Made by a program: the position numbers and the translations under genes
Shown: positions 1 through 56,528 of the stretch, piece by piece
Position numbering within the stretch: position 1 is the stretch's first letter
Layout: every line of letters begins with the position of its first letter
The notes under the pieces: generated by a model
Told to the model about the DNA's origin: nothing
What the model saw: the letters and a program-made list of their open reading frames with translations, nothing else
Databases searched by the model: none
Source of the DNA: Candidatus Daviesbacteria bacterium
GTDB taxonomy: Bacteria > Patescibacteriota > Microgenomatia > Daviesbacterales > UBA10151
DNA: 64,000 nucleotides
Assembly (NCBI GenBank): GCA_016176335.1
Contig: JACOXI010000003.1
Span: 194,477-258,476, forward strand
Direction: 5' to 3'

Positions 1-296
1 TTAGCTGCAAGGATGGTAGAAATTTTAAGTTGGGTTTGTCTGATCAAAATCTCGTATGGCCCCAGACTTTCTATATAAGGAATTTGTTGTTCAATAGCCT
101 CTTTTTTGTCTGCCAAATCCGCATCCAGTTTAAACCTTAAGATAAAGGCAATAAATACTATGACTTCAACCAATATAAAGATGTACCTTCCTGTAGAAAG
201 AAGCCAGCGGAATACTTTTACCGCCAGTTTCTCGGGATTGCTTTGCGGTTTGAGAAGGTCAAGATTAATCCCGATCTTAAGATTTTTTTTGGGCAT
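1..296 (-). CDS. hypothetical small membrane protein (98 aa; not in supplied ORF track)
   Basis: Reverse-strand ATG at 294-296 (cat) to TAA at 1-3 (tta). Hand translation MPKKNLKIGINLDLLKPQS...YIFILVEVIVFIAFILRF... has one TM helix. Confidence 0.35.
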   Translation of the reverse strand, partial: MPKKNLKIGINLDLLKPQSNPEKLAVKVFRWLLSTGRYIFILVEVIVFIAFILRFKLDADLADKKEAIEQQIPYIESLGPYEILIRQTQLKISTILAA

Positions 297-310
297 GGAT
301 TAATTATACA

Positions 311-335
311 GGGGATAGGGTGTAGGGTGTAGGGG
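311..335 (+). other. G-quadruplex-capable motif GGGGATAGGGTGTAGGGTGTAGGGG (four G-tracts)
   Basis: Read directly from the sequence; between the two reverse-strand genes, immediately 3' of the rpsT stop. Confidence 0.3.
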
Positions 336-340
336 TGAAG

Positions 341-565
341 TTAGTTAGATAACCTTGATTTTAGTCGGGCAGCTTTGTTAGGATGGATCAGTTTTACTTT
401 GGCAGCTTTATCTAATGCGGAAAAAACTGTCTGTAGGTCTTTGGCGTTTTTTGTTGCTCTGACTTTTTTGATCAAAGCTTTCAAAGCATCTTTCCGCCTT
501 TGATTACGGATTGTTCTAGTTTTATCCTTTCTTACCTTTTTAATGGCCGAACGAATTATTGGCAT
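341..565 (-). CDS. rpsT: 30S ribosomal protein S20
   Basis: 74 aa basic protein; IRSAIKKVRKD...KKVRATKNAKD...LIHPNKAARLKSRL matches S20 family. Confidence 0.85.
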   Translation of the reverse strand: MPIIRSAIKKVRKDKTRTIRNQRRKDALKALIKKVRATKNAKDLQTVFSALDKAAKVKLIHPNKAARLKSRLSN

Positions 566-634
566 AAGTTATTTTGGAATGGTATCATAGCCGCTACCTT
601 TTTATCAAGCTCAAATATTGTTATAGTTTAAATT

Positions 635-2275
635 ATGGTCAAAAATTTATTATCAATTCTTTACTCGAGACAAACTTCAATCCTTTCCGGTGCTGTAATT
701 ATTATGGCCACCGTGATTTTATCAAAGATATTGGGTTTGGCAAGAGACAGGTTATTAACTCATATTTTTCCACCGGACAATATTTCTATATTTTTTGCAG
801 CTTTCGGCATACCGGATATAATCTTCCAGCTTTTGGTGTTTGGAGCTCTGTCTGTGGCTTTCATTCCTGTTTTTACGGAATATGTGGAAGGAAAAGGTAG
901 AGATGCGGCATTTAAGTTGGCAGGATCAATTCTAAACTTGGCCCTTATTGTTTTAAGTTTTGCAATTATTATCATCCTGATTTTTATTGATCCGCTCACC
1001 TCTTTGGTTGTCCCCGGGTTTTCTGTTGAGCAGCGTATACAGACAATTACCCTAACAAGAGTAATCTTATTGGGACAGTTATTTTTGGTAATAGGATCGC
1101 TCTTTAGTGGTATGTTGCAATCCTTCCAAAGATTTATTATCCCGGCATTAGCAGGAGTTTTTTATAATGTGGGAATTATTTTGGGGATAATTTTTCTTAC
1201 CTCACCTTTGGGCATGATGGGTGCAGCGATTGGGGTTGTGATTGGGGCAGTTTTACATTTTATGATACAGCTTCCGGTTATCGTCTCGTTGGGTTTTAGA
1301 CCGAAGTTTTTATTGACATTTTTTCATCCGGGAGTAAAGGAAATAACCGGGCTTATGAGTGTTAGAAGTGTGGGGTTGGCAGCGGAGCTTTTTAACGAGA
1401 GAGTGGGAATAGCTTTGGCCTCTTTAATATCTGTTCAATCGGTGACCTTTCTGACATTGTCTCAACATTTACAATTGGTACCGATTAGTCTGTTTGGAGC
1501 AACTATTGCTCAAGCAGCTCTTCCTGTGCTTTCTTCCGAGAGGGCAAGGGGCAGGATGGAAGAATTTAAAACCACACTGCTTACAACAATGCATCAGATT
1601 TTATTTCTGGCACTACCTGCAACAGCAATCCTGATAGTGTTGCGGATTCCTGCGGTAAGGCTGGTTTTCGGAGCATCTCAATTTAATTGGGAGGCAACAG
1701 TTTTAACAGGTTTAACTTTAGCTTATTTGTCAATCGGTTTGGCTGCTCAAGCGGTTTCATTACTTTTGGTCAGGGGTTTTTATGCGCTCAAAGATACAAG
1801 AACACCGGTGGTAGTTTCGCTAGTAGTTGTTGCCACAAATGTGGCCTTAAGTCTGTATTTTGTAAAGAGTTTAAGATTGGATGTTTGGAGTTTGGGTTTT
1901 GCATTCTCAATAGCCAGTATTCTATCGGCAGTGCTACTTTTTTCAACACTTCATCTTAAGGTGGGTAAATTTGATTTAAAGGTTGTTTTAATTCCCTTTT
2001 TCAAGATGGTTATGGCAACCATTATTATGGGTGTTGCTTTGTATGTACCTATAAAGCTTTTGGATCAGGTTATTTTTGACACAACAAGAACACTAAACCT
2101 TTTGATATTAACCGGTCTCTCATCAACTTTTGCTCTTTGTGTTTACGTATTATTGGTTTGGTTTTTGAAAGTCAGAGAACTGCAAACTTATTCGGATTTG
2201 TTAAGAAGAGTTGCCAAGTTTCAAAGTCAGTTTAAAGCCAAGGAAATTATCACTCCTGAGAGCGGAACTGTTTAA
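635..2275 (+). CDS. murJ: lipid II flippase MurJ/MviN
   Basis: 546 aa polytopic membrane protein; N-terminus SILSGAVIIMATVILSKILGLARDRLL and overall MurJ/MOP architecture. Confidence 0.85.
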   Translation: MVKNLLSILYSRQTSILSGAVIIMATVILSKILGLARDRLLTHIFPPDNISIFFAAFGIPDIIFQLLVFGALSVAFIPVFTEYVEGKGRDAAFKLAGSILNLALIVLSFAIIIILIFIDPLTSLVVPGFSVEQRIQTITLTRVILLGQLFLVIGSLFSGMLQSFQRFIIPALAGVFYNVGIILGIIFLTSPLGMMGAAIGVVIGAVLHFMIQLPVIVSLGFRPKFLLTFFHPGVKEITGLMSVRSVGLAAELFNERVGIALASLISVQSVTFLTLSQHLQLVPISLFGATIAQAALPVLSSERARGRMEEFKTTLLTTMHQILFLALPATAILIVLRIPAVRLVFGASQFNWEATVLTGLTLAYLSIGLAAQAVSLLLVRGFYALKDTRTPVVVSLVVVATNVALSLYFVKSLRLDVWSLGFAFSIASILSAVLLFSTLHLKVGKFDLKVVLIPFFKMVMATIIMGVALYVPIKLLDQVIFDTTRTLNLLILTGLSSTFALCVYVLLVWFLKVRELQTYSDLLRRVAKFQSQFKAKEIITPESGTV

Positions 2276-2277
2276 TC

Positions 2278-4041
2278 TTGATGTATATCAGAAATTTTTG
2301 CATTATTGCTCATATAGATGCGGGAAAGTCAACACTGGCTGATAGGCTGTTGGAGATCACAGGAACTGTTCCTAAAGAAAAACTAAAACCCCAGTTGTTG
2401 GATAGTTTGGCTTTAGAGCGGGAGCGTGGTATTACAATTAAATTGGCTCCCGTGCGTTTACGATATACGATAAACGATACACAATATACTCTTAATTTAA
2501 TTGATACTCCCGGCCATGTTGATTTTTCTTATGAGGTATCGCGCGCTTTGGCTGCTGTGGAAGGGGCGATTTTGCTTGTTGATGCAACAGCGGGTATTCA
2601 GGCTCAAACTTTGGCACATGGTCTGGCTGCTTTGGATCAAAACCTGACTTTAATATCTGTAATAAACAAGGTTGATTTGTCTCATGCTGATGTCCAAAAA
2701 TCAACCAAAGCATTGACAGATACTTTTGGATTTTCAGAATCGGAAATATTACTCGTTTCCGGAAAAACCGGTCAGGGAGTGGATAAACTTTTACAAGCTA
2801 TCGTGGAAAGAATTCCTGCTCCCAAATCCGAGACAGACAAACCATTGAGAGCTTTAATCTTTGATTCGTTCTTTGATTCGTTTAAAGGTGTTATTGCCCA
2901 AGTGAGGATTGTTGAGGGGCAAACACCACCAGTAAACAGTAAAATATCCTTTTTGCGAACGCAGGCAGCAGGGCATATCCTGGAAACAGGATTTTTTGTG
3001 CCGCAGCTAACCGTTAACGAGGGATTAAAAAGCGGGGAAATAGGTTATATTGCCACCGGCATCAAAGAACCTGATCTGGTGCGGGTGGGAGATACCATCA
3101 GTTCCACATTTGAGGTGGAGCCCTTGCCAGGATATAAAGAGGTTAAACCTATGGTCTTTGTTGGACTTTTTCCCATAGATGCTGACAAATACTTTGAACT
3201 GAAAGATGCTCTTGCCAAGTTTAGATTAACGGATCCTGCTTTTTCATATATACCGGAGCAATCACAAGCTTTAGGTGCGGGATTTCGATGTGGATTTTTA
3301 GGACTGTTACATGCGGAAGTTGTTCAGGAAAGACTATCAGGAGAATTTAATGTTGATCTTATGGTAACAGTTCCTTCAGTTGAGTATCTTTTAAATAACC
3401 AGCCGATTACCTCTCCTTCGGAGTTGCCCCAGGGAGAAAACATAACCGATTTGAAAGAGCCATGGGTGAAATTGAGAATTTTTGTGCCCCAAAATTATAT
3501 TGGGTCTGTCATGGAGTTAATACAAGATAAAAGAGGCAGATTTTTAAACATGCAGCATTTCGGGCTTCAGGTGGAGATGTCCTATGAAATGCCGCTTTCT
3601 GAAATGGTGACTAATTTTTACGACAGATTAAAATCAGTTTCTTCTGGTTTTGCATCGTTGGATTGGGAGTTTTTGGAATTTCGGGAGGCGGATTGTGTAC
3701 GGGTTGATATTTTGGTGGGAGGAGAGAAGGTTGATGCGCTTTCCATGATCATAATTAAGGAAAAGGCAGAATCCGCCGGTCGGCTGATGGTGGAAAAATT
3801 AAAAGAGGTACTCCCCAGGCAAAATTTTGCAATAGCAATACAGGCAGCAATTGGTGGAACAATTATTGCCAGAGAAACGCTTTCTCCCTTTAGAAAAGAT
3901 GTCACAGCCAAATTATATGGTGGAGATAGAACCAGAAAAGATAAGCTGCTAGAGAAGCAGAAAAAAGGTAAAAAGAAGATGAAGATGGTAGGCCGTGTAG
4001 AAATTCCCCAAGAAGCATTTTTAAGTATTTTGAAAAGTTAA
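2278..4041 (+). CDS. lepA: translation elongation factor 4 (LepA)
   Basis: 587 aa; GTPase motifs [21 protein letters not shown]; LepA-specific C-terminal region. Confidence 0.95.
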   Translation: MMYIRNFCIIAHIDAGKSTLADRLLEITGTVPKEKLKPQLLDSLALERERGITIKLAPVRLRYTINDTQYTLNLIDTPGHVDFSYEVSRALAAVEGAILLVDATAGIQAQTLAHGLAALDQNLTLISVINKVDLSHADVQKSTKALTDTFGFSESEILLVSGKTGQGVDKLLQAIVERIPAPKSETDKPLRALIFDSFFDSFKGVIAQVRIVEGQTPPVNSKISFLRTQAAGHILETGFFVPQLTVNEGLKSGEIGYIATGIKEPDLVRVGDTISSTFEVEPLPGYKEVKPMVFVGLFPIDADKYFELKDALAKFRLTDPAFSYIPEQSQALGAGFRCGFLGLLHAEVVQERLSGEFNVDLMVTVPSVEYLLNNQPITSPSELPQGENITDLKEPWVKLRIFVPQNYIGSVMELIQDKRGRFLNMQHFGLQVEMSYEMPLSEMVTNFYDRLKSVSSGFASLDWEFLEFREADCVRVDILVGGEKVDALSMIIIKEKAESAGRLMVEKLKEVLPRQNFAIAIQAAIGGTIIARETLSPFRKDVTAKLYGGDRTRKDKLLEKQKKGKKKMKMVGRVEIPQEAFLSILKS

Positions 4042-4563
4042 ATGAAAAAATACGTTTTTAAGGCTTACAATCCAATTTTCCCTGAACTTTTTGAAAAAGA
4101 AAAAAGCAGGATAAAAAAGGTTTTGGGAAGTAGTGATCGTATTGAACATGTTGGCAGTACTGCGGTTTTAGGTTTAGGCGGTAAGGGGATAATTGATATT
4201 TATATTGCCACACAGAAAAATCAAATGAAGGTTTTATCGAAAAAATTACAGGGATTGGGTTATGAATATGAACCTGAAGGTGGTTCGGATGAGCGTTTGT
4301 TCCATCGGATCTCTTTGCCTGATCCCGCGGAAGAAGTAAGAACCTATCATGTTCATGTGACTTTTCCCGAGAGTGATGAGTGGATTAAGGCAATTAAATT
4401 GCGGGATTATTTAAGAACGCACCCTCAAGATGCCCAAAAATATGCTAAGGCGAAAAAGCTTGCGGCAGCGAAGGCTAATGAAAGTAGGAAAACTTATCTC
4501 AAGATAAAGAGCCCTATTTTAGAAGAAATAATTGAGAAATCCTTAACATTCGGAAGACTATAA
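4042..4563 (+). CDS. GrpB family protein (nucleotidyltransferase-like, COG2320)
   Basis: 173 aa; RIEHVGSTAV...IIDIYI motif typical of GrpB/UPF0157. Confidence 0.65.
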   Translation: MKKYVFKAYNPIFPELFEKEKSRIKKVLGSSDRIEHVGSTAVLGLGGKGIIDIYIATQKNQMKVLSKKLQGLGYEYEPEGGSDERLFHRISLPDPAEEVRTYHVHVTFPESDEWIKAIKLRDYLRTHPQDAQKYAKAKKLAAAKANESRKTYLKIKSPILEEIIEKSLTFGRL

Positions 4564-12942: not shown

Positions 12943-13539
12943 ATGGGTAAAAAAGCGAACGATCGAATAAATGAAATTATAGGGAAAAATAAAGAGCTCG
13001 AGGCTCAGTTAAAAAGAGCAGTAGCTGATTATCATAATTTGGAAAAAAGAGTATCTGAAGGAAGATCAGAGCTAACTTCTTTTATGGGAGCAGAATTGGT
13101 GAAAAGACTTTTACCAGTATTGGATCATTTAGAACAGGTAGTCGACCGTGGTCGACCTATCCTGAGCGAGCGAAGTGAGTCGAAGGACTGGTTTAGAGGA
13201 GTTGAGCTGGCTGTTAAAGAGTTAAACCAGGTTTTACAATCTGAAGGGTTGGATGAAATATCAGCAGATCCCTCGACTTCGCTCGGGACAGGCTCCGTAT
13301 TTGATCCAAGCCTTCATGAGGCAGTTGACACAAAGGATGGGGAAGATAATAAAATAATAGAAGTAGTCAGAAAAGGTTATAATTTAAATGGAAAAGTTTT
13401 AAGACCAGCACAAGTGATTGTCGGGCGGAAGCAAGACAATCATCCTGAGGAGCGAAACAGCGACGAAGGATCTAGTATGGAAGATTCTGGACAAGCCAGA
13501 ATGACAGAGAACGAAGGATCTGAAGGAAGTACAAACTAA
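12943..13539 (+). CDS. grpE: nucleotide exchange factor GrpE (with C-terminal acidic extension)
   Basis: [10 protein letters not shown]...VELAVKEL...FDPSLHEAV motifs; operon context. Confidence 0.9.
13267..13290. repeat. 24-nt in-frame repeat GATCCCTCGACTTCGCTCGGGACA (second copy in fusA at 50060-50083, 23/24 identical)
   Basis: Direct comparison of the two loci; encodes DPSTSLGT in GrpE and DPSTPLGT in EF-G. Confidence 0.7.
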
Positions 13540-13540
13540 T

Positions 13541-15496
13541 ATGGCTAAAATTGTGGGAATAGATTTAGGTACAACAAATTCAGCAGTGGCGGTGATGGAG
13601 GGTGGTAAACCCAAAGTCATCCATTCTGCTGAAGGGGAAAATATTATCCCATCAGTTGTTAATCCCACCAAAAATATTGTGGGTAGGGTGGCCAAACGCC
13701 AGGCTGTGGTTAATCCCAAAGAAACGATTTTTTCCATTAAAAGATTAATGGGTAGAAAATTCAAAGATGCCGAGGTTCAAAGAGATATTAAATGGCTTCC
13801 ATATGCTATTAAAGAAGGCAAAAATGGCATGGCTGTTGTGGAGGTGGAAGGTCATGAGTATACTCCACAAGAAATTTCTGCTCAAATTTTACAAAAAATT
13901 AAGACTGATGCAGAGAGTTATTTAGGAGAAAAAGTGACAGATGCAGTAATTACTGTTCCTGCATATTTTGATGATGCTCAAAGACAAGCCACCAAACAAG
14001 CTGGAGAAATAGCTGGGCTTAATGTGCAAAGAATTATCAATGAACCAACAGCTGCTGCGCTGGCTTACGGACTTGATAAATCTCACGCTCACACCATTGC
14101 TGTTTATGATCTGGGCGGCGGAACTTTTGATATCTCCATTTTGGAACTGGGGGATGGAGTAATTGAAGTGAAATCAACTAATGGCGACACACATTTGGGT
14201 GGAGATGATTTTGATCAGGTTATTTTAGATTATTTAGCAGAAGAATTTAAAAAAGAACAAGGCATTGATCTTAAAGGAGACAGACAAGCTTTGCAAAGAT
14301 TAAGAGATGCTGCTGAAAAAGCCAAAATTGAGCTTTCTTCCTCAATGGAGGCTGCAATTTCCATACCATTTGTGACTGCTGATTCATCAGGGCCTAAGCA
14401 TTTGGAGATGAAACTTTCCCGAGCCAAGCTGGAGGGATTGGTTAAATCTTTAATTGATAAATCCTTTAATGCAGTTAAGGCATGCCTTAAAGATGCAAAG
14501 CTTGAGCCAGGAAAAATTGATGAAGTGGTTTTGGTTGGTGGAATGACCAGGATGCCTGCAGTGCAGAAGGCTGTGCAGGAATATTTTGGCAAAGAGCCAC
14601 ACAAGGGTATTAATCCTGATGAGGTGGTGGCTGTGGGGGCAGCAATACAAGGTGGAGTTTTGGGTGGGGAAGTCAAAGATGTTTTGCTTTTGGATGTTAC
14701 ACCTTTGACTTTGGGAATTGAAACTTTGGGTGGAGTTAGAACGCCTCTTATTAACAGAAATACCACAATTCCCTCTTCCAAATCAGAAGTTTTCTCAACA
14801 GCAGCTGATAACCAGCCTGCTGTGGAGATTAATGTGCTGCAGGGTGAGAGGGAAATGGCAGCTGACAACAAATCTTTGGGAAGATTTGTTTTAGATGGGA
14901 TTCCGCCTGCACCAAGAGGAGTTCCACAAATTGAAGTCACTTTTGATATTGATGCCAATGGTATTTTAAATGTGTCTGCCAAAGATAAAGCCACAGGCAA
15001 AGAGCAAAAAATAACCATCACAGGTTCAACAGGTTTGGATAAGGCAGAAGTGGAGAAAATGACCAAAGAAGCAGAAGCTCATGCAGAAGAGGATAAAAAG
15101 AAAAAAGAGGGAATTGAAGTAAGAAATATAGCAGATAGTTTAGTTTATCAAACAGAAAAAACCTTAAAAGAACAAGGGGATAAAGTGCCAGCTGATGTTA
15201 GAACAGAGGTGGAGCAAAAGTTAAATGAGCTTAAAGATGCATTAAAAGGAGATAATGTTGATGATATTAAGACCAAAGGTGATGCGCTGGGGGAAGTTTT
15301 GCAAAAAGTAGGTTCTGCAATGTACAAAGACCAGGGTACAGGTGACAGTGGACAGGGTACAGCAGGACAAACCGAGGAAGCTCCAAAAACAGAGGATTCG
15401 TCATCCGAAGCTCCAGCGAAGGATGAGGCTGTTGAAGGTGAAGTAGTGAGCGAAGCTTCTGCTGACGCAGTAGAAGAGGAGAAAAAATCGGAGTAA
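13541..15496 (+). CDS. dnaK: molecular chaperone DnaK (Hsp70)
   Basis: [16 protein letters not shown], full Hsp70 NBD+SBD; 651 aa. Confidence 0.97.
15332..15355. repeat. 24-nt in-frame repeat CAGGGTACAGGTGACAGTGGACAG (identical copy in infB at 21007-21030)
   Basis: 24/24 identity; encodes QGTGDSGQ in the DnaK C-terminal tail and in an IF2 G-domain insertion. Confidence 0.7.
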
Positions 15497-15640
15497 CGCT
15501 CCAGTCGGCAACCCCGCTCGCTTGCTCATCAACGCAAGCGTCCTGCGACTAATCGCCTCGGATACGCTCGCTTCGCTCGTCTAGGACTCACTGCGCTCGG
15601 GGGCAGCCTCCTTCCGCTCTCAGTTTCGATAAGTTGATAT
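15497..15640. repeat. GC-rich dnaK-dnaJ intergenic element carrying CTCGCTTCGCTCG and GCGTCCT...GGATACG blocks
   Basis: Unusually GC-rich for this genome; shares an 11-mer TCGCTTCGCTC with 55501-55512 and the ordered heptamers GCGTCCT/GGATACG with 55621-55660. Confidence 0.45.
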
Positions 15641-15649
15641 AATTCGATT

Positions 15650-16588
15650 ATGGCTAAACGTGATTATTATGAAATTTTAGGAGTTAATAAAAGTGCCTCG
15701 GTAGATGAAATTAAATCTGCTTACAGAAAACTGGCCAGAAAACATCATCCTGATGTGGACAAATCTGCTGGTGCTGCGGAAAGGTTTAAGGAAATTGGTG
15801 AAGCGTACCAGGTCCTATCTGATCCGCAAAAAAAAGGAGCTTATGATCAGTTTGGTCATGCTGCATTCGATCGAGGAGCTGGAGCAGGTGGAAATCCCTT
15901 TGGCGGTGGATGGCAGCAATATAGTTGGTCAACAGGTGGTGGTAACCCCTTCGGCTCCGCTCAGGGCGGGCCCAATATCCAATTTGATTTCGGAGGATTT
16001 GAAGATCCGTTTGAGTTATTTGAACAAATTTTTGGTGGTGGGTTTGGTGCTCAAATGAGAAGAAGGCCAACATATCAATTAAATTTAAAATTTGATGAGG
16101 CTATAAAAGGGGTTGAGAAAGAAGTTGAGATAGAATCAAGAAATCAAGCAGGCAGATTAGAGAGAAAAAGGATGAAGATTAAGGTTCCTGCAGGGGTTGA
16201 TAACGGAACCAAAATGAGATTTGGGGATTTGGATATTGTGTTTAATGTAGGAAGAAATCCGCAATTTTTAAGAGAAGGAGCAGATGTATTTTCTGAAATT
16301 ACCATAAATATTCCACAATTGGTTTTAGGAGATGTGTTTGAGGTGGAAACAGTACAAGGGAAAGTTAAGGTAAAAGTCCCTCCAGGCACTCAACCAGGAT
16401 CTTTGGTAAAACTTAAAGGAAAAGGCGCCCCGCGTTTGGGAAGTTCATCTCACGGTGATCATTATGTCAGGGTAAACCTTAATGTGCCACAAAATCCTTC
16501 AAAACAAGAAAAACAACTTTACGAAGAACTAAAAAATTTAGCCTCCCCGCCTGGCGGCGAGGCAAGCAGGAAAAAAGGCTGGTTTTAA
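15650..16588 (+). CDS. dnaJ: DnaJ-family co-chaperone lacking the Cys-rich zinc-finger domain (class B / CbpA-like)
   Basis: J-domain with HPD (KHHPDVD), Gly/Phe-rich region, C-terminal substrate-binding domains; no CxxCxGxG repeats. Confidence 0.85.
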
Positions 16589-27449: not shown

Positions 27450-27540
27450 ATTAACCTAATTGACCTAATTTCTAATTGATCTAAATAATGATTAAATGTC
27501 TTAAGTACCAATTAGAACATTTTGTCATTAAGATTTGTTT

Positions 27541-27575
27541 AGAAATTAGAAATTAGAAATTAGAAATTAGAAATT
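27541..27575. repeat. perfect tandem heptamer repeat (AGAAATT)x5 ending 6 nt before the RNase J start codon
   Basis: Read directly: agaaatt x5 then tttaatATG. Confidence 0.85.
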
Positions 27576-38155: not shown

Positions 38156-39112
38156 ATGAAAAAAATAATTGGATCAGCTGTTTTGGTTATCTTGGCAGTA
38201 TTTTTAATTCGTGGTTTTTGGGATAGTCAACTTACTCCCGTGTCATCGGAGAAAGAGACTAAATCTTTTGTAATTACAAAGGGTGGGAGTTTTTCGGAAG
38301 TTTCCAAGAAATTATCGGATGAAGGTTTGATTAAGTCTTCATTTTTCTTTACTTTTTTTGCTAAACAATCAGGTCTTTCGGATAAAATCCAGTCCGGTAC
38401 TTTTAAATTATCTCCCTCAATGTCTGCAGAGGAAATCTTAAAAACAATCACAGGTAATCCTGTAGACGATTGGGTGACCTTGCTTGAAGGATGGAGAATT
38501 GAGGAAATGGCAGAGAAACTCAATTCAGAATTCAGAATTCAGAATTCAGAATTTTTGAAAATTGCCAAGGAAGGATATATGTTTCCTGATACCTATTTGT
38601 TCCCAAAAGATTATTCGGCGGAGCAGATTGCAAAAATTATGATGGATAATTTTGAGAAAAAATATACAGAAGCGCTGCGGACAAAAATTAAGTCTTTGGG
38701 ACTATCTGAAGATCAAGGAGTCATATTGGCATCAATAGTGGAAAGAGAAGCGAGGTCGTATGAGGCAAGAAGGATGGTTGCAAGTATTCTTTTAAAAAGA
38801 CTAAAAATTGGTATGGGGCTTAATGCCGATGCAACAGTACAATATGCCACAGGTTACCAGCCCCAAGAAAAAAGCTGGTGGAAAAGACATTTAACAAAAG
38901 AAGATTTAAGGGTGGAATCACATTACAATACTTATATTTATTCCGGTTTACCGCCGACACCTATTGCAAACCCGTCTTTATCATCTCTTCAGGCAGTTGC
39001 GGATGCAGATTTGTCAATACCGTATCTTTATTATTATCACGATTCAAAAGGCAATTCATATTATGCTAAAACCTTGGATGAACACAACCAAAATATTGCA
39101 AATAACCCCTGA
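38156..39112 (+). CDS. mltG: endolytic murein transglycosylase MltG (YceG-like)
   Basis: N-terminal TM, YceG domain; conserved alaS-ruvX-mltG neighbourhood. Confidence 0.85.
   Translation: MKKIIGSAVLVILAVFLIRGFWDSQLTPVSSEKETKSFVITKGGSFSEVSKKLSDEGLIKSSFFFTFFAKQSGLSDKIQSGTFKLSPSMSAEEILKTITGNPVDDWVTLLEGWRIEEMAEKLNSEFRIQNSEFLKIAKEGYMFPDTYLFPKDYSAEQIAKIMMDNFEKKYTEALRTKIKSLGLSEDQGVILASIVEREARSYEARRMVASILLKRLKIGMGLNADATVQYATGYQPQEKSWWKRHLTKEDLRVESHYNTYIYSGLPPTPIANPSLSSLQAVADADLSIPYLYYYHDSKGNSYYAKTLDEHNQNIANNP
38522..38549. repeat. tandem heptamer repeat (AATTCAG)x4 inside the mltG coding region
   Basis: Read directly; encodes NSEFRIQNSEF. The unit is not a multiple of 3, so a copy-number change would frameshift mltG. 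Confidence 0.85.
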
Positions 39113-48820: not shown

Positions 48821-49081
48821 ATGTCTGTAGAGAACGTTGATAAAAATCCTTCAGGTCGATTAGGTCCAGCAACTCTAAGAGAACTGGTGGGAGATCTTAG
48901 TGATCATGATAGGCATCATGAAGCTACAGATAGAATAGAAGCCTTGGTAAGAATGGGTCCATCATTAGGTACTTTAGTTAGGGGGTTATCATTAGAGCCA
49001 TCTCTTCCTGGACGTTCTTCGCGTTCATATCACAGGTCCAGAGGCCGAAGAAGGTTTTCTGCACCAGGATTTGACTTTTAG
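48821..49081 (+). CDS. unassigned 86-aa ORF (low-complexity, Arg/Ser-rich); may instead be non-coding
   Basis: Open frame only; no family resemblance. Followed by a strong intrinsic terminator. Confidence 0.2.
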   Translation: MSVENVDKNPSGRLGPATLRELVGDLSDHDRHHEATDRIEALVRMGPSLGTLVRGLSLEPSLPGRSSRSYHRSRGRRRFSAPGFDF

Positions 49082-49108
49082 GTTCAAAGTCAGTATCATT
49101 AATACTTG

Positions 49109-49140
49109 GCCTCCTGAAGTTTGAGGGGGCTTATTTTTTT
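49109..49140 (+). terminator. intrinsic terminator (GCCTCCT-GAAGTTTG-AGGGGGC + TTATTTTTTT)
   Basis: 7-bp stem (one G-U) followed by a 10-nt T-rich tract, after the unassigned segment downstream of rpsG. Confidence 0.6.
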
Positions 49141-49160
49141 AGATGGAGTAAAATGAATTT

Positions 49161-49382
49161 ATGGAGAAAAAGTTGAGGAAAGAAAAATTGAAGATGTGGA
49201 GAGAAAACCTCCAAAAATTAGAGGAGCAACTTGCTGCTGTGCAGCTTAAAAAAGGTGCTGCTGCGCAAGAGGGAGATCTGTCCGAAAATGCAGCCTACAT
49301 TATGGCAATTGAGGATGCCGAGACCTTGCGGGTACAAATTGAACAGGTGAAAAAAATAATTCAAGAATTGGAGGAAGGGTAA
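49161..49382 (+). CDS. GreA/GreB N-terminal coiled-coil domain-only protein (73 aa)
   Basis: LQKLEEQLAAV...GDLSENAAYIMAIEDAETLRVQIEQVKKII matches the Gre N-terminal coiled-coil (GDLxENAEY signature); no C-terminal FKBP-like domain encoded. Confidence 0.55.
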   Translation: MEKKLRKEKLKMWRENLQKLEEQLAAVQLKKGAAAQEGDLSENAAYIMAIEDAETLRVQIEQVKKIIQELEEG

Positions 49383-49453: not shown

Positions 49454-51616
49454 ATGCCAGTTCAAAAGACCAAACGGGATTTTCCGTTAGATCGCATACG
49501 CAATATAGGCATTATTGCCCATATTGATGCAGGGAAAACCACTACAACCGAGCGAATCCTCTTTTATACAGGCAGATCATACAAAATCGGAAATATTGAT
49601 GAAGGCACAACAGTGACTGACTGGATGGAGCAGGAAAGGGAGAGAGGAATTACTATTGTTTCTGCTGCTGTCACCACTTTTTGGACAGTTAAATCTGGTC
49701 TTTTTGAAGGAACTGAAACAAGAATTAATTTAATTGATACTCCCGGACACGTTGATTTTACGGCAGAAGTTGAAAGATCTTTGCGAGTATTGGATGGAGC
49801 AGTAATTGTTTTGGATAGCTCTTCCGGTGTGCAATCTCAAACCGAGACTGTTTGGAGGCAGGCCAATAAATACAGTGTGCCCCTTATTGCCTTTGCCAAC
49901 AAAATGGATGTGGTGGGTGCGGATTTTGCCGCTACTATTCAATCTGCCAGAGACAGGTTAGGTGCAAATGCTGTTGCTTACAATTTACCCATGGGAAAAG
50001 AGAATGATTTTAAAGGAGTAGTAGATCTTTTAACTGAAAAAGCAATAATTTGGGAAGGTGATCCCTCGACTCCGCTCGGGACAAGTGATACCGGTGCCAA
50101 ATTTACCGAAGTAGCAATACCTGCTGATATGGTGGATCAAGTTAAAGAGGCCCGTGAGAAGTTGGTGGAAGAGATTTCAGGGACAGATGATGTGTTAATG
50201 GAAAAATACTTGGCTGCAGAGGAAATCAGCATCGATGAACTCAAAAAGGCTTTGAGAAAAGCAGTTATTGATAATAAAATTGTGCCTGTTTTGGCAGGAT
50301 CATCTTTGCGCAACAAAGGCGTTCAACCTATGCTTGATTCAGTGGTAGAGTATCTGCCATCCCCACAAGATATTGGGCAAGTGTCGGGCCAAAACCCTCA
50401 AACAGGTGAGATGGTTATACGTAAAGCTGATCCCCTCGCTCCCTTATCTGCTTTGGCTTTTAAGATTCAGGTTGATCCGCACGTTGGAAAACTTACTTAT
50501 ATTAGGGTTTACTCTGGAACTTTAAAAAGTGGTTCTTATGTTTACAACTCCACTAAGCAAATTAAGGAAAGAGTCGGCAGACTACTCTTGATGCATGCCA
50601 ATGACCGGGAAGAGATTGAGGAAGCTTATGCAGGGGAAATTGTGGCTGCAGTAGGACTTAAGGATACTATCACCGGAGATACACTTTGTGATGAGATTGC
50701 TCCTATTATTTTAGAATCCATCTCATTTCCTGATCCGGTTATTTCCTTGGCCATTGAGCCGAAAACAAAATCCGATCAGGAAAAATTAGGCTATGCTTTA
50801 CAAAGACTGGCAGAGGAAGATCCAACCTTCAGAATAAAGAGCGATCCTGAAACAGCCCAGACTATTATTGCCGGAATGGGGGAATTACAGCTGGAGATTT
50901 TAGTGGAGCGAATGAGGAGGGAGTTTAAAGTGGATGCCAATGTTGGCCAGCCTCAGGTTGCCTATAAAGAAACCATTACTAAAATGGCAGAGGGAGAAGG
51001 TAAGTATATCAGGCAAACTGGTGGTCGGGGTCAATATGGTCACTGTCTTTTAAGAATTGAGCCTTTGCCTCGTGGACAAGGAAGAGAATTTGTTTCCGAA
51101 ATTACTGGCGGAGCAATACCACGGGAGTTTATTTCTCCCATTGAAAAAGGTGTTATTGAGAAAGAAGATACCGGAATTTTGGCAGGATACCCGTTAACAG
51201 ATATTAAGGTGGCAGTATACGATGGATCTTTTCATGATGTTGATTCATCAGAGGTGGCATTTAAAATTGCCGCTTCTTTAGGTTTGTCTGAAGCTGCCAA
51301 AAAAGCAGATATGATTTTGCTCGAACCTATCATGAAGGTTGAGGTGACAACCCCGGATGAGTTTATGGGGGATATTATCGGTGATCTATCTTCCAAAAGA
51401 GCCCAAATTTTGGGATCGGAAAAGCGGGGAAATTATACCATCATTAATGCTTTGGTACCCTTGGCAGAGATGCACGGATACGCAACAGCTCTTCGCAGTA
51501 TGTCCCAAGGTCGAGCCGGCTACTATATGGAGGCTGATCACTACGAACCGGTACCAGCCCAAATCACTGCCAAAATAGTTGAATCCTCTGGATTTACAGG
51601 CCGTGTTGAGCATTAG
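49454..51616 (+). CDS. fusA: translation elongation factor G
   Basis: [21 protein letters not shown] motifs; domains I-V of EF-G; 720 aa. Confidence 0.97.
50060..50083. repeat. fusA copy of the 24-nt DPSTxLGT-coding repeat (see 13267-13290)
   Basis: 23/24 identical to the grpE copy. Confidence 0.7.
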
Positions 51617-54834: not shown

Positions 54835-55143
54835 ATGCCAAGAGGAAGAATCAGAGTAAAACTGAAAAGTTATGATTATCGGGTGTTGGATCACACCTGT
54901 GAGTCCCTTTTGGATACAGCCCTTCGAACCGGTGCCAAGATTGTTGGCCCAATACCTCTCCCTACAAAAATTGAAAGAATTACTGTTTTAAAATCTCCTC
55001 ATACAGATAAAGATTCAAGAGAAGCTTTTGAAATAAAAACCCATAAAAGAATGATTGATATTGTAGAACCTACCCAAAAAACCATAGATTCCCTGATGCA
55101 CCTTGAGATCCCGGCAGGCGTTGACATTGAAGTTAAGATGTGA
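54835..55143 (+). CDS. rpsJ: 30S ribosomal protein S10
   Basis: RIRVKLKSYDYRVLD...VGPIPLPT S10 signature. Confidence 0.95.
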   Translation: MPRGRIRVKLKSYDYRVLDHTCESLLDTALRTGAKIVGPIPLPTKIERITVLKSPHTDKDSREAFEIKTHKRMIDIVEPTQKTIDSLMHLEIPAGVDIEVKM

Positions 55144-55185
55144 CACTCTGTGTCATCCTGAGGGCGAAGCCCGAAGGATCTCTGA
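55141..55185. repeat. GC-rich structured repeat element (copy A) starting at the TGA stop of rpsJ
   Basis: TGACACTCTGTGTCATCCTGAGGGCGAAGCCCGAAGGATCT: a 5-bp hairpin then an extended hairpin AUCCU-GA-GGGC-GAA-GCCC-GA-AGGAU. The first 27 nt match copy C at 20 of 23 aligned positions. Confidence 0.5.
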
Positions 55186-55192
55186 ACTTGTT

Positions 55193-55468
55193 TCAGATAC
55201 CATCTAAAAGATTCTTAAATGCTGGGTTAATGGTTTTTATAAGTGCCATTTTCCTTTTTCTTGTCCAACCCTTTATTTTCTTCTCTGCGTTTATGGCGTC
55301 CATAACTTGGTCAAATTCTTGATAATAAACTAACTTATTTATATTGTATTTACTTGTAAAGTGATATTTCTTTATTCTATGTTCATGTATCCGACGCTCT
55401 AAATTGTTAGTTACTCCCACATAAAGAGTATTGGATTTATTTGTTAGGATATAAACATAATAAGACAT
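55193..55468 (-). CDS. GIY-YIG nuclease family protein (YhbQ/UPF0213-like, 91 aa)
   Basis: YYVYILTNKSNTLYVGVTNNLERRIHEH = GIY-YIG core with conserved Arg/Glu; reverse strand inside the S10 operon. Confidence 0.8.
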   Translation of the reverse strand: MSYYVYILTNKSNTLYVGVTNNLERRIHEHRIKKYHFTSKYNINKLVYYQEFDQVMDAINAEKKIKGWTRKRKMALIKTINPAFKNLLDGI

Positions 55469-55530
55469 GATTAGAAGTATCTCACATTCGTGAGAGATGT
55501 TTCGCTTCGCTCAACATGACAATTGTCAGC

Positions 55531-55559
55531 TTGCATTTAGATTCAGCCTCTGTTAAAAT
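55531..55559 (+). promoter_or_regulatory. candidate promoter for rplC and downstream r-protein genes (TTGCAT-17-TAAAAT), flanked by ACAATTGTCA palindromic repeats
   Basis: Hexamers with 17-nt spacer. TGACAATTGTCA (55517-55528, perfect 12-bp palindrome) and ACAATTGTCA (55595-55604) bracket it. Confidence 0.35.
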
Positions 55560-55674
55560 TTCCTTACTGATGATTTTATTGTCAGGTTGATTTAACAATT
55601 GTCAATTTTCAGTAGATCGTGCGTCCTACTCCGCGTAAAGCTTCGCAGGATACGACGATTGAAAGCGAGATACT

Positions 55675-55729
55675 GAGTGAGAGCCTGAGTGGTTCGAGTA
55701 CCCTCACCATTGAAGGCCTCACTCTTTTT
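55675..55729 (+). terminator. terminator-like/attenuator hairpin immediately upstream of rplC (GAGTGAGAGCC ... GGCCTCACTC + TTTTT)
   Basis: Arms complementary over 10 nt apart from one unpaired A in the left arm, enclosing a 29-nt interior; U-tract ends 13 nt before the rplC ATG. Confidence 0.45.
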
Positions 55730-55742
55730 AATGCTTTAAATT

Positions 55743-56528
55743 ATGATTAACAGTTTATTAGGAATTAAGAAAAATATGACATCAACTTATGACTCTCGGG
55801 GAAGAAGGGTGGGGGCGACTGTGGTGGAGATCCAGCCTAATTTAGTGACTCAAATTAAGGCAACTGACGGAAAAGATGGATATGATGCAGTGCAACTGGG
55901 AATAGGAAGCAAAAAGTCAGTTAAAAAGCCCCAGCTTGGACACGGTAAAAAGGTGGGAATAGAGAAACCGATCCGCTGGTTTAGGGAAATTAGAATTATG
56001 AATCCCAAATCAAGCTTAGAAGATTTACAGCCTGGACAAGATATAAAACTTGACCAGGTTTTTTCAATCGGAGATGCGGTTAAAGTTAGCGGAACTTCCA
56101 AAGGTAAGGGATTTCAAGGTGGTGTCAGAAGGCACGGATTTCATGGTGGGCCAAAGACTCATGGTCAATCTGACAGGCATCGTGCCCCGGGAGCTATTGG
56201 TTCAGGCACCACGCCGGGAAGAGTTTATAAAGGCAAAAGAATGGCAGGACATATGGGTAATACCCAAGCCAGTATTAAGAATTTGGAGATAGTTGGTTTG
56301 GATAAAGAGAAGAATTTATTGATGGTAAAAGGCGGGATACCAGGTCCAACAGGAAGACTTGTAAAGATTACAAAGTTAGGAAGAATCAAAGGTTACACTC
56401 CACCACCGGAGGAAAAGGTGGAGGAGAGTGAAGAGGGTAAAGGGGAAAGCGTTAAGGGTGAAGAAAAGACAGAAAGTCAACCAACTGAAGAAGCACCAAA
56501 AGAAGGAGAAGAAAATGCCAAAAGTTAA
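55743..56528 (+). CDS. rplC: 50S ribosomal protein L3 (with Glu/Lys-rich C-terminal extension)
   Basis: L3 family conservation; acidic/basic C-terminal tail. Confidence 0.95.
   Translation: MINSLLGIKKNMTSTYDSRGRRVGATVVEIQPNLVTQIKATDGKDGYDAVQLGIGSKKSVKKPQLGHGKKVGIEKPIRWFREIRIMNPKSSLEDLQPGQDIKLDQVFSIGDAVKVSGTSKGKGFQGGVRRHGFHGGPKTHGQSDRHRAPGAIGSGTTPGRVYKGKRMAGHMGNTQASIKNLEIVGLDKEKNLLMVKGGIPGPTGRLVKITKLGRIKGYTPPPEEKVEESEEGKGESVKGEEKTESQPTEEAPKEGEENAKS

Follow-up and report, generated by a model that had tools for sequence, protein, structure and literature searches.

In-frame copies of a short repeat in grpE and fusA of a Daviesbacteria genome, and the association of related repeats with UPF0213 GIY-YIG nuclease genes

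Introduction

The genes grpE and fusA of a Candidatus Daviesbacteria bacterium each carry a 24-nt copy of a short repeat, which entered both genes as DNA, directly 3′ of a GAT codon and without disturbing the reading frame. The two genes lie in a 64,000-nt stretch of its genome (GCA_016176335.1, contig JACOXI010000003.1, positions 194,477 to 258,476; hereafter the window, in whose numbering all coordinates are given). The inserted sequence has been kept, or lately delivered, as nucleotides rather than as a peptide, and related lineages have gained it repeatedly at the same codon boundary. The same repeat superfamily forms the inverted terminal repeats of tiny cassettes that encode only a GIY-YIG nuclease of the UPF0213 family, one of which is present in the window. 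We consider the block to be a solo copy of a short interspersed selfish repeat, similar to repetitive extragenic palindromic (REP) sequences and Rickettsia palindromic elements (RPEs) and possibly mobilised by the GIY-YIG nuclease, and give this reading a probability of about 0.6.

Results

Two near-identical blocks in unrelated genes

The grpE gene (12943..13539), which is part of an hrcA-grpE-dnaK-dnaJ cluster, contains the plus-strand block GATCCCTCGACTTCGCTCGGGACA (13267-13290) encoding DPSTSLGT, and fusA (49454..51616) contains the plus-strand block GATCCCTCGACTCCGCTCGGGACA (50060-50083) encoding DPSTPLGT. A preliminary description of the window, made from the sequence alone, had reported this near-identity and judged chance sharing of a 24-mer to be essentially impossible, and both statements hold: the blocks match at 23 of 24 positions, with a single base difference, no further match with three or fewer mismatches is present elsewhere in the 64 kb, and 100 dinucleotide-preserving shuffles of the window gave none. 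Both blocks are local GC-rich islands in DNA of ~40% G+C. The grpE-dnaK stretch also occurs in an independent Logan assembly (L001, run SRR4343435), and an NCBI record has identical GrpE and EF-G proteins, which excludes an assembly artefact.

Clean insertions at occupied and empty sites

Comparison with close orthologues reveals clean eight-codon insertions at both loci. The empty fusA site of locus L134 (88% amino acid identity) reads ..TGGGAAGGTGAT followed directly by GAAACAGGT.., and between these the window has 24 additional bases, CCCTCGACTCCGCTCGGGACAAGT (50063..50086, plus strand), encoding PSTPLGTS in a loop of the G′ subdomain after ..AIIWEGD; fusA of L337 has a near-identical insert. 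The empty grpE site is found in L147, where ..TCCGAT abuts GGACAA.., whereas the window and loci L144, L146 and L148 carry CCCTCGACTNCGCTCGGGACAGGC at this position. The 24-nt insert of the window, CCCTCGACTTCGCTCGGGACAGGC (13270..13293, plus strand), encodes PSTSLGTG, and the insert DNA of the other three loci is identical. Both empty sites already have the GAT codon (13267-13269 in grpE), the inserted segment begins and ends 3 nt further downstream than the block first delineated, and the similarity between the two copies spans ~27 nt. The in-frame insertion that the preliminary description proposed thus stands, with its boundaries shifted by 3 nt.

Both insertions map to exposed loops, a point that had been raised as a question. 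GrpE aligns with the solved structures 4ANI, 3A6M and 1DKG with a 7-residue gap at the block, directly before the conserved FDP..H segment, and alignment of EF-G with the Haemophilus structure 6B8D opens a gap of eight residues following ..AIIW in the G′ subdomain. In a GrpE model from AlphaFold (mean predicted local distance difference test score, pLDDT, 65), the insert is placed in coil with pLDDT<50.

The suggested comparison with orthologues also uncovers presence/absence polymorphism. The insert is carried by 41 of 120 GrpE orthologues, always at the identical position, and by 15 of 120 EF-G orthologues, at the same codon boundary and scattered in the tree. The genome GCA_016184225.1 has the fusA insert and lacks the grpE insert, showing that the two sites vary independently.

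Conservation as nucleotides and repeated gain

Among four insert-bearing grpE genes whose proteins are 57-70% identical, synonymous differences at codons for conserved residues number 240/597 in the flanks and 0/50 in the insert, where variation is confined to the first position of codon five. Between fusA of the window and of L337 the corresponding values are 303/612 gene-wide and 0/6 in the insert. Because the inserts show no synonymous change while 40-50% of the flanking codons have changed, the constraint lies at the DNA rather than the protein level, or the origin is recent. A different grpE element (13159-13188, encoding ILSERSESK) has, in contrast to the 24-nt insert, undergone ordinary synonymous drift. 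The preliminary description had named ancient residues shared by all orthologues, with divergent synonymous sites, as the pattern that would speak against recent insertion; this pattern is excluded, since only 41 and 15 of the two sets of 120 carry the insert, which is nucleotide-identical apart from the one variable base.

The distribution of the insert indicates multiple acquisitions. In a neighbour-joining tree of EF-G (688 columns, 120 orthologues) the 15 insert-bearing sequences require at least 14 changes, compared to a mean of 14.3 and a minimum of 11 with shuffled labels. This scatter is not a mere lack of resolution, because the tree does resolve clades sharing other local residues. 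The GrpE insert is partly clustered, with 20 changes versus 34 for shuffled labels. Across the orthologues, the fusA site contains all four variants of the free base (encoding P, S, T or A) as well as related 'SGQ' subfamilies, and a few other inserts are seen at neighbouring positions in the same EF-G loop. Delivery may have occurred by site-specific insertion, by microhomology with the (G)AT of the element, or by short-patch recombination between lineages.

A repeat family spanning many phyla

The two inserts belong to a family with a consensus of approximately (G)(A/G)TCCC-TCGACTNCGCTC-GGGA(T/C), followed by GACA, GAACGG or AGG; in this a stem of 5-6 bp surrounds a conserved loop of 12 nt, in which a single base (N) is free, and there is a TGTC/GACA tag. 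The free base is the one that varies in the grpE and fusA inserts. Scanning one genome per species with the pattern CCTCGACTNCGCTCGGGA identified 135 copies in at least 120 loci, and the genome matches listed include Acidobacteriota, Verrucomicrobiota, Sphingomonadales isolates, Bacteroidales, Planctomycetota, NC10, Ignavibacteria and Patescibacteria, among others. By our own arithmetic, a 17-base pattern searched on both strands of 596 Gb is expected to yield roughly 70 matches (some tens) by chance; a chance origin is nonetheless ruled out by conserved bases outside the searched pattern, with C at position -1 in 131 of the 135 copies and T at -2 in 118, and with downstream flanks of TGACA, CGAACGG or CAGG in the listed copies. 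The outermost stem pair covaries (A-T in 39, G-C in 32 and G-T in 33 of the 135), which supports the 5-6-bp stem around the 12-nt loop. The short repeat postulated in the preliminary description is real, then, and is neither local nor lineage-specific.

Scanning metagenomes with the subtype found in the window gave at least 120 further loci, and a viral scan gave 57 stretches with the motif. One of these, L310 (IMG/VR UViG_3300025308_000256, 1-4145), is a phage-like contig of 38% GC with portal and large terminase genes. Over 4.1 kb it has six motif copies on the same strand, of which two interrupt the large terminase gene in frame (..GSPSTSLGMTKDK.. and ..GASTSLGIER..), and phages could carry the repeat between lineages. 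The unit can also form short tandem arrays: an Acidobacteriaceae contig (L002, 1705-1802) has three head-to-tail copies with a 40-nt period. Rfam gave no gathering-level match in the window and none over the motif in eight motif loci at E<=1, and no tRNA or tmRNA was found.

Copies within other coding sequences

Residence in coding sequence was evaluated at loci of 48% G+C or less, where open frames are informative. Fifteen of 48 distinct copies at such loci lie deep inside open reading frames (ORFs) of at least 150 aa, and the proteins interrupted in frame include DnaG, LeuRS (twice), GAPDH, enolase, RpoB, HisH, MiaA, a histidine kinase and glycosyltransferases. The PST-LGT frame predominates, being used by both window copies and by 8 of the 15 well-embedded copies elsewhere; the commonest reading of the reverse strand is VPSEVEG, and the unit is free of stop codons in all six frames. 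The grpE and fusA copies persist because their length is a multiple of three, all six frames are open, the residues encoded (PST-LGT) are small and polar, and the sites are flexible surface loops. The insertions, together with these other housekeeping hosts, bear out the earlier suggestion that, comparably to RPEs, a short repeat has colonised coding sequence and left the frame unbroken.

A GIY-YIG cassette bracketed by related repeats

The window also contains a 371-nt cassette (55151-55521), absent from the preliminary description, that lies antisense between rpsJ (54835..55143) and rplC (55743..56528, with a Ribosomal_L3 domain) in the S10 ribosomal-protein operon, and whose inverted repeats are related to the motif. 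Its 91-aa ORF (55193..55468, minus strand) consists of a GIY-YIG domain only (Pfam PF01541, E=1e-15) and matches the UPF0213 structures 1YWL and 1ZG2 in the PDB with E about 1e-5. Residues Y16, G18, R26, H30 and E62 are invariant in the GIY-YIG alignment. Given these catalytic residues and the stand-alone size of about 90-100 aa, we assign the product as a putative UPF0213 nuclease (YhbQ/YazA/SLX1-like); the family has been classed in a review alongside SLX1, YhbQ and YazA (PMC7017083). Libraries of defence systems and phage families gave only marginal matches to it.

On the 3′ side of the gene is the inverted repeat TGTC-ATCCT-GAGGGCGAAGCCCGA-AGGAT-CTC (55151..55181, plus strand; DNA fold -6.3 kcal/mol, z = -1.9), which on the gene strand reads GAG-ATCCT-TCGGGCTTCGCCCTC-AGGAT-GACA downstream of the ORF. 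The junction, in which the stop codon is followed by AACAAGTTCAGAGATCCTTCG.., is common to the window and to loci L134, L276 and L278. The 5′ flank (55480..55521, plus strand) has a palindrome, TCTCAC-ATTC-GTGAGA, then GAG-ATGTT-TCGCTTCGCTC-AACAT-GACA, or TGTC-ATGTT-GAGCGAAGCGA-AACAT-CTC upstream on the gene strand; this arrangement recurs in L122, L124, L134, L276 and L278.

Searches from both directions link the repeat to the gene. Eight of 240 motif-centred loci (1.53 Mb) contain a GIY-YIG gene, which in seven of the eight lies within 300 nt of a motif, and the exact 24-mer core sits beside such a gene in L024, L120 and L207. GIY-YIG loci were also gathered through exact-protein look-ups, tblastn against plasmids and a test of family representatives. 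In this protein-side search all six distinct Candidate Phyla Radiation (CPR) loci are flanked by inverted repeats with their TGTC ends facing outward and with a conserved post-stop junction, and on plasmids one Sphingomonas and one Methylobacterium UPF0213 copy are flanked by repeats. The insertion site differs between genomes: cassettes are found at recR/ybaB, rpsG/fusA, rpsJ/rplC, nrdR/methyltransferase and glycosyltransferase loci, and the rpsG site, where L134 and L124 have a cassette, is empty in the window. When rpsJ was used to look for an unoccupied rpsJ-rplC site, the same genome was the sole match.

The UPF0213 family comprises 10,865 cluster representatives at E<=1e-3. The top 149 include 127 with called extensions that run 10 aa or more past the domain, and 63 of these contain peptides from the head or tail of the repeat (VILS, VIPS, CHPE..; ..LRMT, ..AQDD, ..LRSG). 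Such signatures number 83 in 5,113 extension residues versus 2 in 13,320 residues of domain core and 3 in 21,404 of EF-G, an enrichment of ~100-fold. The flanking repeats are stop-free, and gene callers often run these ORFs on through them, creating spurious N- and C-terminal extensions (P0490, P0361-P0509). One representative reads into FVIPAKAGIS, presumably a translation of a Neisseria dRS3/CGTC-1-type repeat, a hint that UPF0213 genes are flanked by further TGTC/CGTC repeat families as well.

Other repeat-like units in the window

GrpE alone accommodates four repeat-like units. The second, ATCCT-GAGCGAGCGAAGTGAGTCGA-AGGAC (13159..13188, plus strand), is older-looking and opposite in orientation to the 24-nt insert; it is the loose reverse-complement relative noticed previously, and is a real and separate element. 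It is present or absent among orthologues, occurs at two to three different positions as GPALSERSESNG, and lies in a break between two long GrpE helices (residues 74-79 in the AlphaFold model). The C-terminal tail beyond the conserved domain (13440-13539) is built entirely from two further units: TC-ATCCT-GAGGAGCGAAACAGCGACGA-AGGAT-CT (13440..13473, plus strand), assigned by resemblance only and similar to the 5′ flank that the GIY-YIG gene has in L134, and the minus-strand unit TGTC-ATTCTGGC-TTG-TCCAGAAT (13484..13506), whose plus strand encodes ..SGQARMT. The latter forms a good hairpin (DNA fold -5.5 kcal/mol, z = -5.3) with a 7-8-bp stem and a 3-5-nt loop, the geometry here that is closest to published CGTC-tagged REPs. 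Residues 164-198 of this tail are predicted by AlphaFold to be disordered, and repeat DNA appears to have pushed the grpE stop codon to a new position.

A generic stem-GAGC...TCGA-stem hairpin pattern matches six units in the window versus 0.6 expected. One such motif-like unit, GCCCT-GAGCGGAGCCGA-AGGGG (15946..15967, minus strand; PFGSAQGG on the plus strand), falls in the G/F linker of dnaJ (15650..16588), since the DnaJ domains occupy residues 5-66 and 142-280. The dnaK-dnaJ spacer (15493-15624) comprises 130 nt of GC-rich DNA inside a 40%-GC genome and includes degenerate, plus-strand copies recognised by resemblance only (..CGCTCGCTTCGCTCG.. and ..CTCACTGCGCTCGGGGGCAG.., 15560..15612). 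The intergenic region upstream of rplC (55522-55742) contains repeated TGACAATTGTCA palindromes and a motif-like hairpin, ATGGT-GAGGGTACTCGA-ACCAC (55689..55710, minus strand), which is a pattern match only.

Two other regions deserve mention. The rpsG-fusA gap (48821-49382) contains an 86-aa GC-rich ORF with no Pfam match and a 73-aa ORF matching only the GreA/GreB N-terminal domain, with the same mini-GreA gene preceding fusA in L134 and L337. There are also 7-nt tandem arrays, TTAGAAA repeated four to five times (27539-27570) and AATTCAG repeated four times (38522-38550).

Discussion

A possible mechanism and points against it

The copies in grpE and fusA were inserted as DNA after GAT and remain in flexible loops with the frame intact. 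If the block is a solo copy of a REP/RPE-like selfish repeat, they would be passengers without a function in the protein. An SLX1-like, structure-selective GIY-YIG nuclease may recognise the repeat and spread or homogenise it in trans, as REP-associated tyrosine transposases (RAYTs) do with REPs and their paired forms (REPINs). We infer this mobilisation from the anatomy of the cassette and its association with the repeat. More broadly, UPF0213 nucleases may be the cognate enzymes of TGTC/CGTC-tagged repeats, forming a second REP/RAYT-like system in many phyla and some phages that would be built on a structure-selective nuclease in place of a tyrosine transposase and would repeatedly place 24-nt units in a homing-like manner at the same codon boundary of essential CPR genes; this wider proposal is possible but speculative.

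Several observations weigh against mobilisation of the repeat by the nuclease, or against parts of the evidence for it. Of the motif copies sampled, only ~3% have a GIY-YIG gene next to them, no such gene was found in the viral motif loci, and a Sphingomonas pseudogene and three Legionella plasmid copies of UPF0213 show no clear repeats. The flanks of the window cassette resemble the 24-mer only in general architecture and lack its exact core, and adjacency is compatible both with an enzyme that mobilises the repeat and with a cassette that has landed in it. No target-site duplication is visible at the cassettes or at the grpE and fusA inserts; GTGAT occurs on both sides of the fusA insert and has no counterpart at grpE. 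The two window copies fold no better than shuffled sequence (minimum free energies of -2.2 and -1.5 kcal/mol, z about +1), and they represent a subtype with an A.C mismatch in the stem that accounts for 9 of the 135 sampled copies. A stable hairpin is thus unsupported for these 24-mers, their recognition as hairpins is doubtful, and 'palindromic', as implied by the earlier comparison with RPEs, suits the family better than these two members. Furthermore, the peptide-signature patterns behind the ~100-fold enrichment were composed after inspection of the data, both trees are simple neighbour-joining trees, and the count of two exact-type copies and ~8 related units is limited to 64 kb.

Alternative explanations

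The alternative with most to commend it is that the repeat is a landing pad, with GIY-YIG cassettes or other elements inserting preferentially into pre-existing inverted repeat dimers while the repeats spread by routes of their own, for example through another transposase, through replication that switches template at microhomology, or through short-patch recombination once DNA has been taken up. It accommodates the ~97% of sampled copies with no GIY-YIG gene nearby and the phage contigs that have the motif without the nuclease gene; the GAT at both empty sites matches the 5′ end of the element and is compatible with microhomology, and Neisseria dRS3 repeats are known integration sites for phages. 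Published CGTC-tagged REPs, to which dRS3 belongs, are moreover mostly head-to-head dimers (PMC3733652). A passive target does not readily account for the constant polarity of the flanks (TGTC outward) and the conserved junctions, found at all six CPR loci and also in several phyla, nor for repeat peptides being ~100-fold denser at UPF0213 gene ends than in controls, which suggests a unit travelling with its repeats; a 91-aa nuclease with no DNA-binding domain would also be a poor autonomous site-specific integrator. On balance we think the landing-pad explanation improbable, though a serious competitor.

Selection by the host would be a different matter. A cis-acting element useful in grpE and fusA at the DNA or RNA level – a nuclease or processing site, translational pause, mRNA-stability signal or DNA uptake sequence – would fit the strict nucleotide conservation of the inserts amid saturated flanks and the conservation of the motif across phyla, and REPs are mostly downstream of genes and thought to act as RNA elements (PMC3733652). 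We find it unlikely, given that two thirds of GrpE and seven eighths of EF-G orthologues manage without the insert, that unrelated genes and spacers harbour copies, in either orientation and in several frames, that Rfam offers no family match, and that the window copies have no stable fold. DNA uptake sequences (DUS/USS) in particular are species-specific, strongly over-represented in the one lineage and tied to its competence machinery, and a motif common to distant phyla and phage contigs does not show that lineage restriction. Selection of PST-LGT as a protein feature, a linker or modification site arising convergently in GrpE and EF-G, is close to refuted: the exposed loops and the bias towards one frame (both window copies and 8 of 15 others) are what it predicts, but synonymous differences are missing from the inserts and affect 40-50% of conserved flanking codons, the same DNA is non-coding, on the other strand or in other frames in high-GC phyla, and most orthologues lack the insert. 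The bare pairwise match, and nothing more, would be explained if the similarity were due to chance, if grpE and fusA had undergone a single ectopic gene conversion, or if the assembly had produced an artefact. With zero matches expected from shuffling, the same grpE sequence in an independent assembly and an NCBI record, and hundreds of copies in other organisms, these are refuted, and we assign them a negligible probability.

Significance

To our knowledge, in-frame colonisation of essential genes by selfish repeats has been seen mainly in Rickettsia and in a few REP-rich proteobacteria. It can now be extended to CPR bacteria, with grpE, fusA, dnaG, leuS, gap, eno and rpoB as hosts, and with a near-identical element in unrelated phyla. 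The present analysis adds to the preliminary description the spread across many phyla, the maintenance at the nucleotide level, the repeated gain at one boundary and the association with UPF0213 GIY-YIG genes; no earlier description of the repeat-GIY-YIG pairing was found in the literature searched, subscription journals excepted. Many odd 'insertions' and low-complexity tails in CPR and other metagenomic proteins are repeat DNA that gene callers have read through, rather than lineage-specific features. The repeated gain of identical nucleotides at one codon boundary offers a natural system for studying how short DNA is delivered into genes, and the bracketing of UPF0213 genes by repeats suggests a function that can be tested for a family of over 10,000 sequence clusters. 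It may also answer a question posed in print, namely which factor mobilises CGTC-tagged REPs, for which the UPF0213 nuclease is a candidate.

Comparison with known systems

Among the nearest described systems are the CGTC-tagged palindromic repeats described by Di Nocera et al. (2013, BMC Genomics 14:522; PMC3733652), in which the tag is often TGTC and stems start with A-T and T-A. These occur in five phyla, mostly in alphaproteobacteria including Sphingomonads, as single units and inverted dimers, include Neisseria dRS3 and Rickettsia RPE-4 and RPE-6, have copies within ORFs, tRNA synthetase genes among them, and 'apparently lack a dedicated transposase' (PMC3733652). The present motif shares the tag and AT stem start, the single units and inverted dimers, the presence in several phyla with Sphingomonads prominent, and the copies in ORFs; the reverse complement of both window copies begins with TGTC, and canonical copies read TGTCATCCCGAGCG.. 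or CGTCCCGAGCG.. (TGTC-AT-CCC...). It differs in having a 5-6-bp stem, a 12-mer loop and no CCA, where the published repeats have a stem of 8-9 bp, a loop of 4-5 nt and a CCA tail, and on the tag side the stem of the window copies is missing its AT. The loop strings and encoded peptides of the motif are absent from the supplementary lists of Di Nocera et al., which like the article belong to PMC3733652, and the article does not mention GIY. A literature search, with subscription journals outside its scope, returned no paper containing the motif strings and none linking GIY-YIG genes to REP-like repeats, MITEs (miniature transposable elements with inverted repeats) or RAYTs. On sequence features we treat the motif as representing a family related to, and distinct from, the CGTC-tagged REPs.

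RPEs, reportedly described by Ogata et al. in 2000, are likewise short in-frame repeats in unrelated and often essential genes, located in surface regions and polymorphic among relatives. The classical RPE-1 is about 100-150 nt long and restricted to Rickettsia, whereas the present unit is 24-27 nt with a conserved 12-nt loop, a weak palindrome and a distribution over many phyla; the two are set apart here by description, not by sequence. RPE-4 and RPE-6 have been placed among the C/TGTC-tagged repeats (PMC3733652), and the present motif ends in TGTC. A MITE is not a suitable designation, the 24-nt unit having neither terminal inverted repeats nor a target-site duplication at either insert.

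Short GC-rich repeats that are mobile in AT-rich DNA, with cases in frame, are also known from yeast mitochondria, whose GC clusters are short, GC-rich mobile palindromes in an AT-rich genome, some being in frame in var1. These differ from the present repeat in belonging to another domain of life, in their unrelated sequence and in having no associated nuclease gene. Free-standing GIY-YIG homing endonuclease genes, such as the seg genes of phage T4, resemble the cassette as small genes between highly conserved genes that are present or absent among relatives. Homing endonucleases carry a DNA-binding domain that recognises the empty allele, however, and the 91-aa protein is a catalytic domain alone, bracketed by inverted repeats; we thus reject its identity as a free-standing homing endonuclease gene.

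The REP/REPIN-RAYT system (Nunvar 2010; Bertels and Rainey 2011, PMC3116915) differs in its components: RAYT is a Y1 HUH transposase acting with a GTAG tag, while here the tag is TGTC and the enzyme a UPF0213 GIY-YIG protein from a family with no known transposase activity. Membership of REP/RAYT is rejected on the tag and the flanked GIY-YIG gene, the other ORFs of the window being unscanned for RAYT. The two systems are nevertheless alike in their organisation, with a small enzyme gene between inverted copies of a far more numerous dispersed repeat, and recognition in both seems to involve structure and a short tag.

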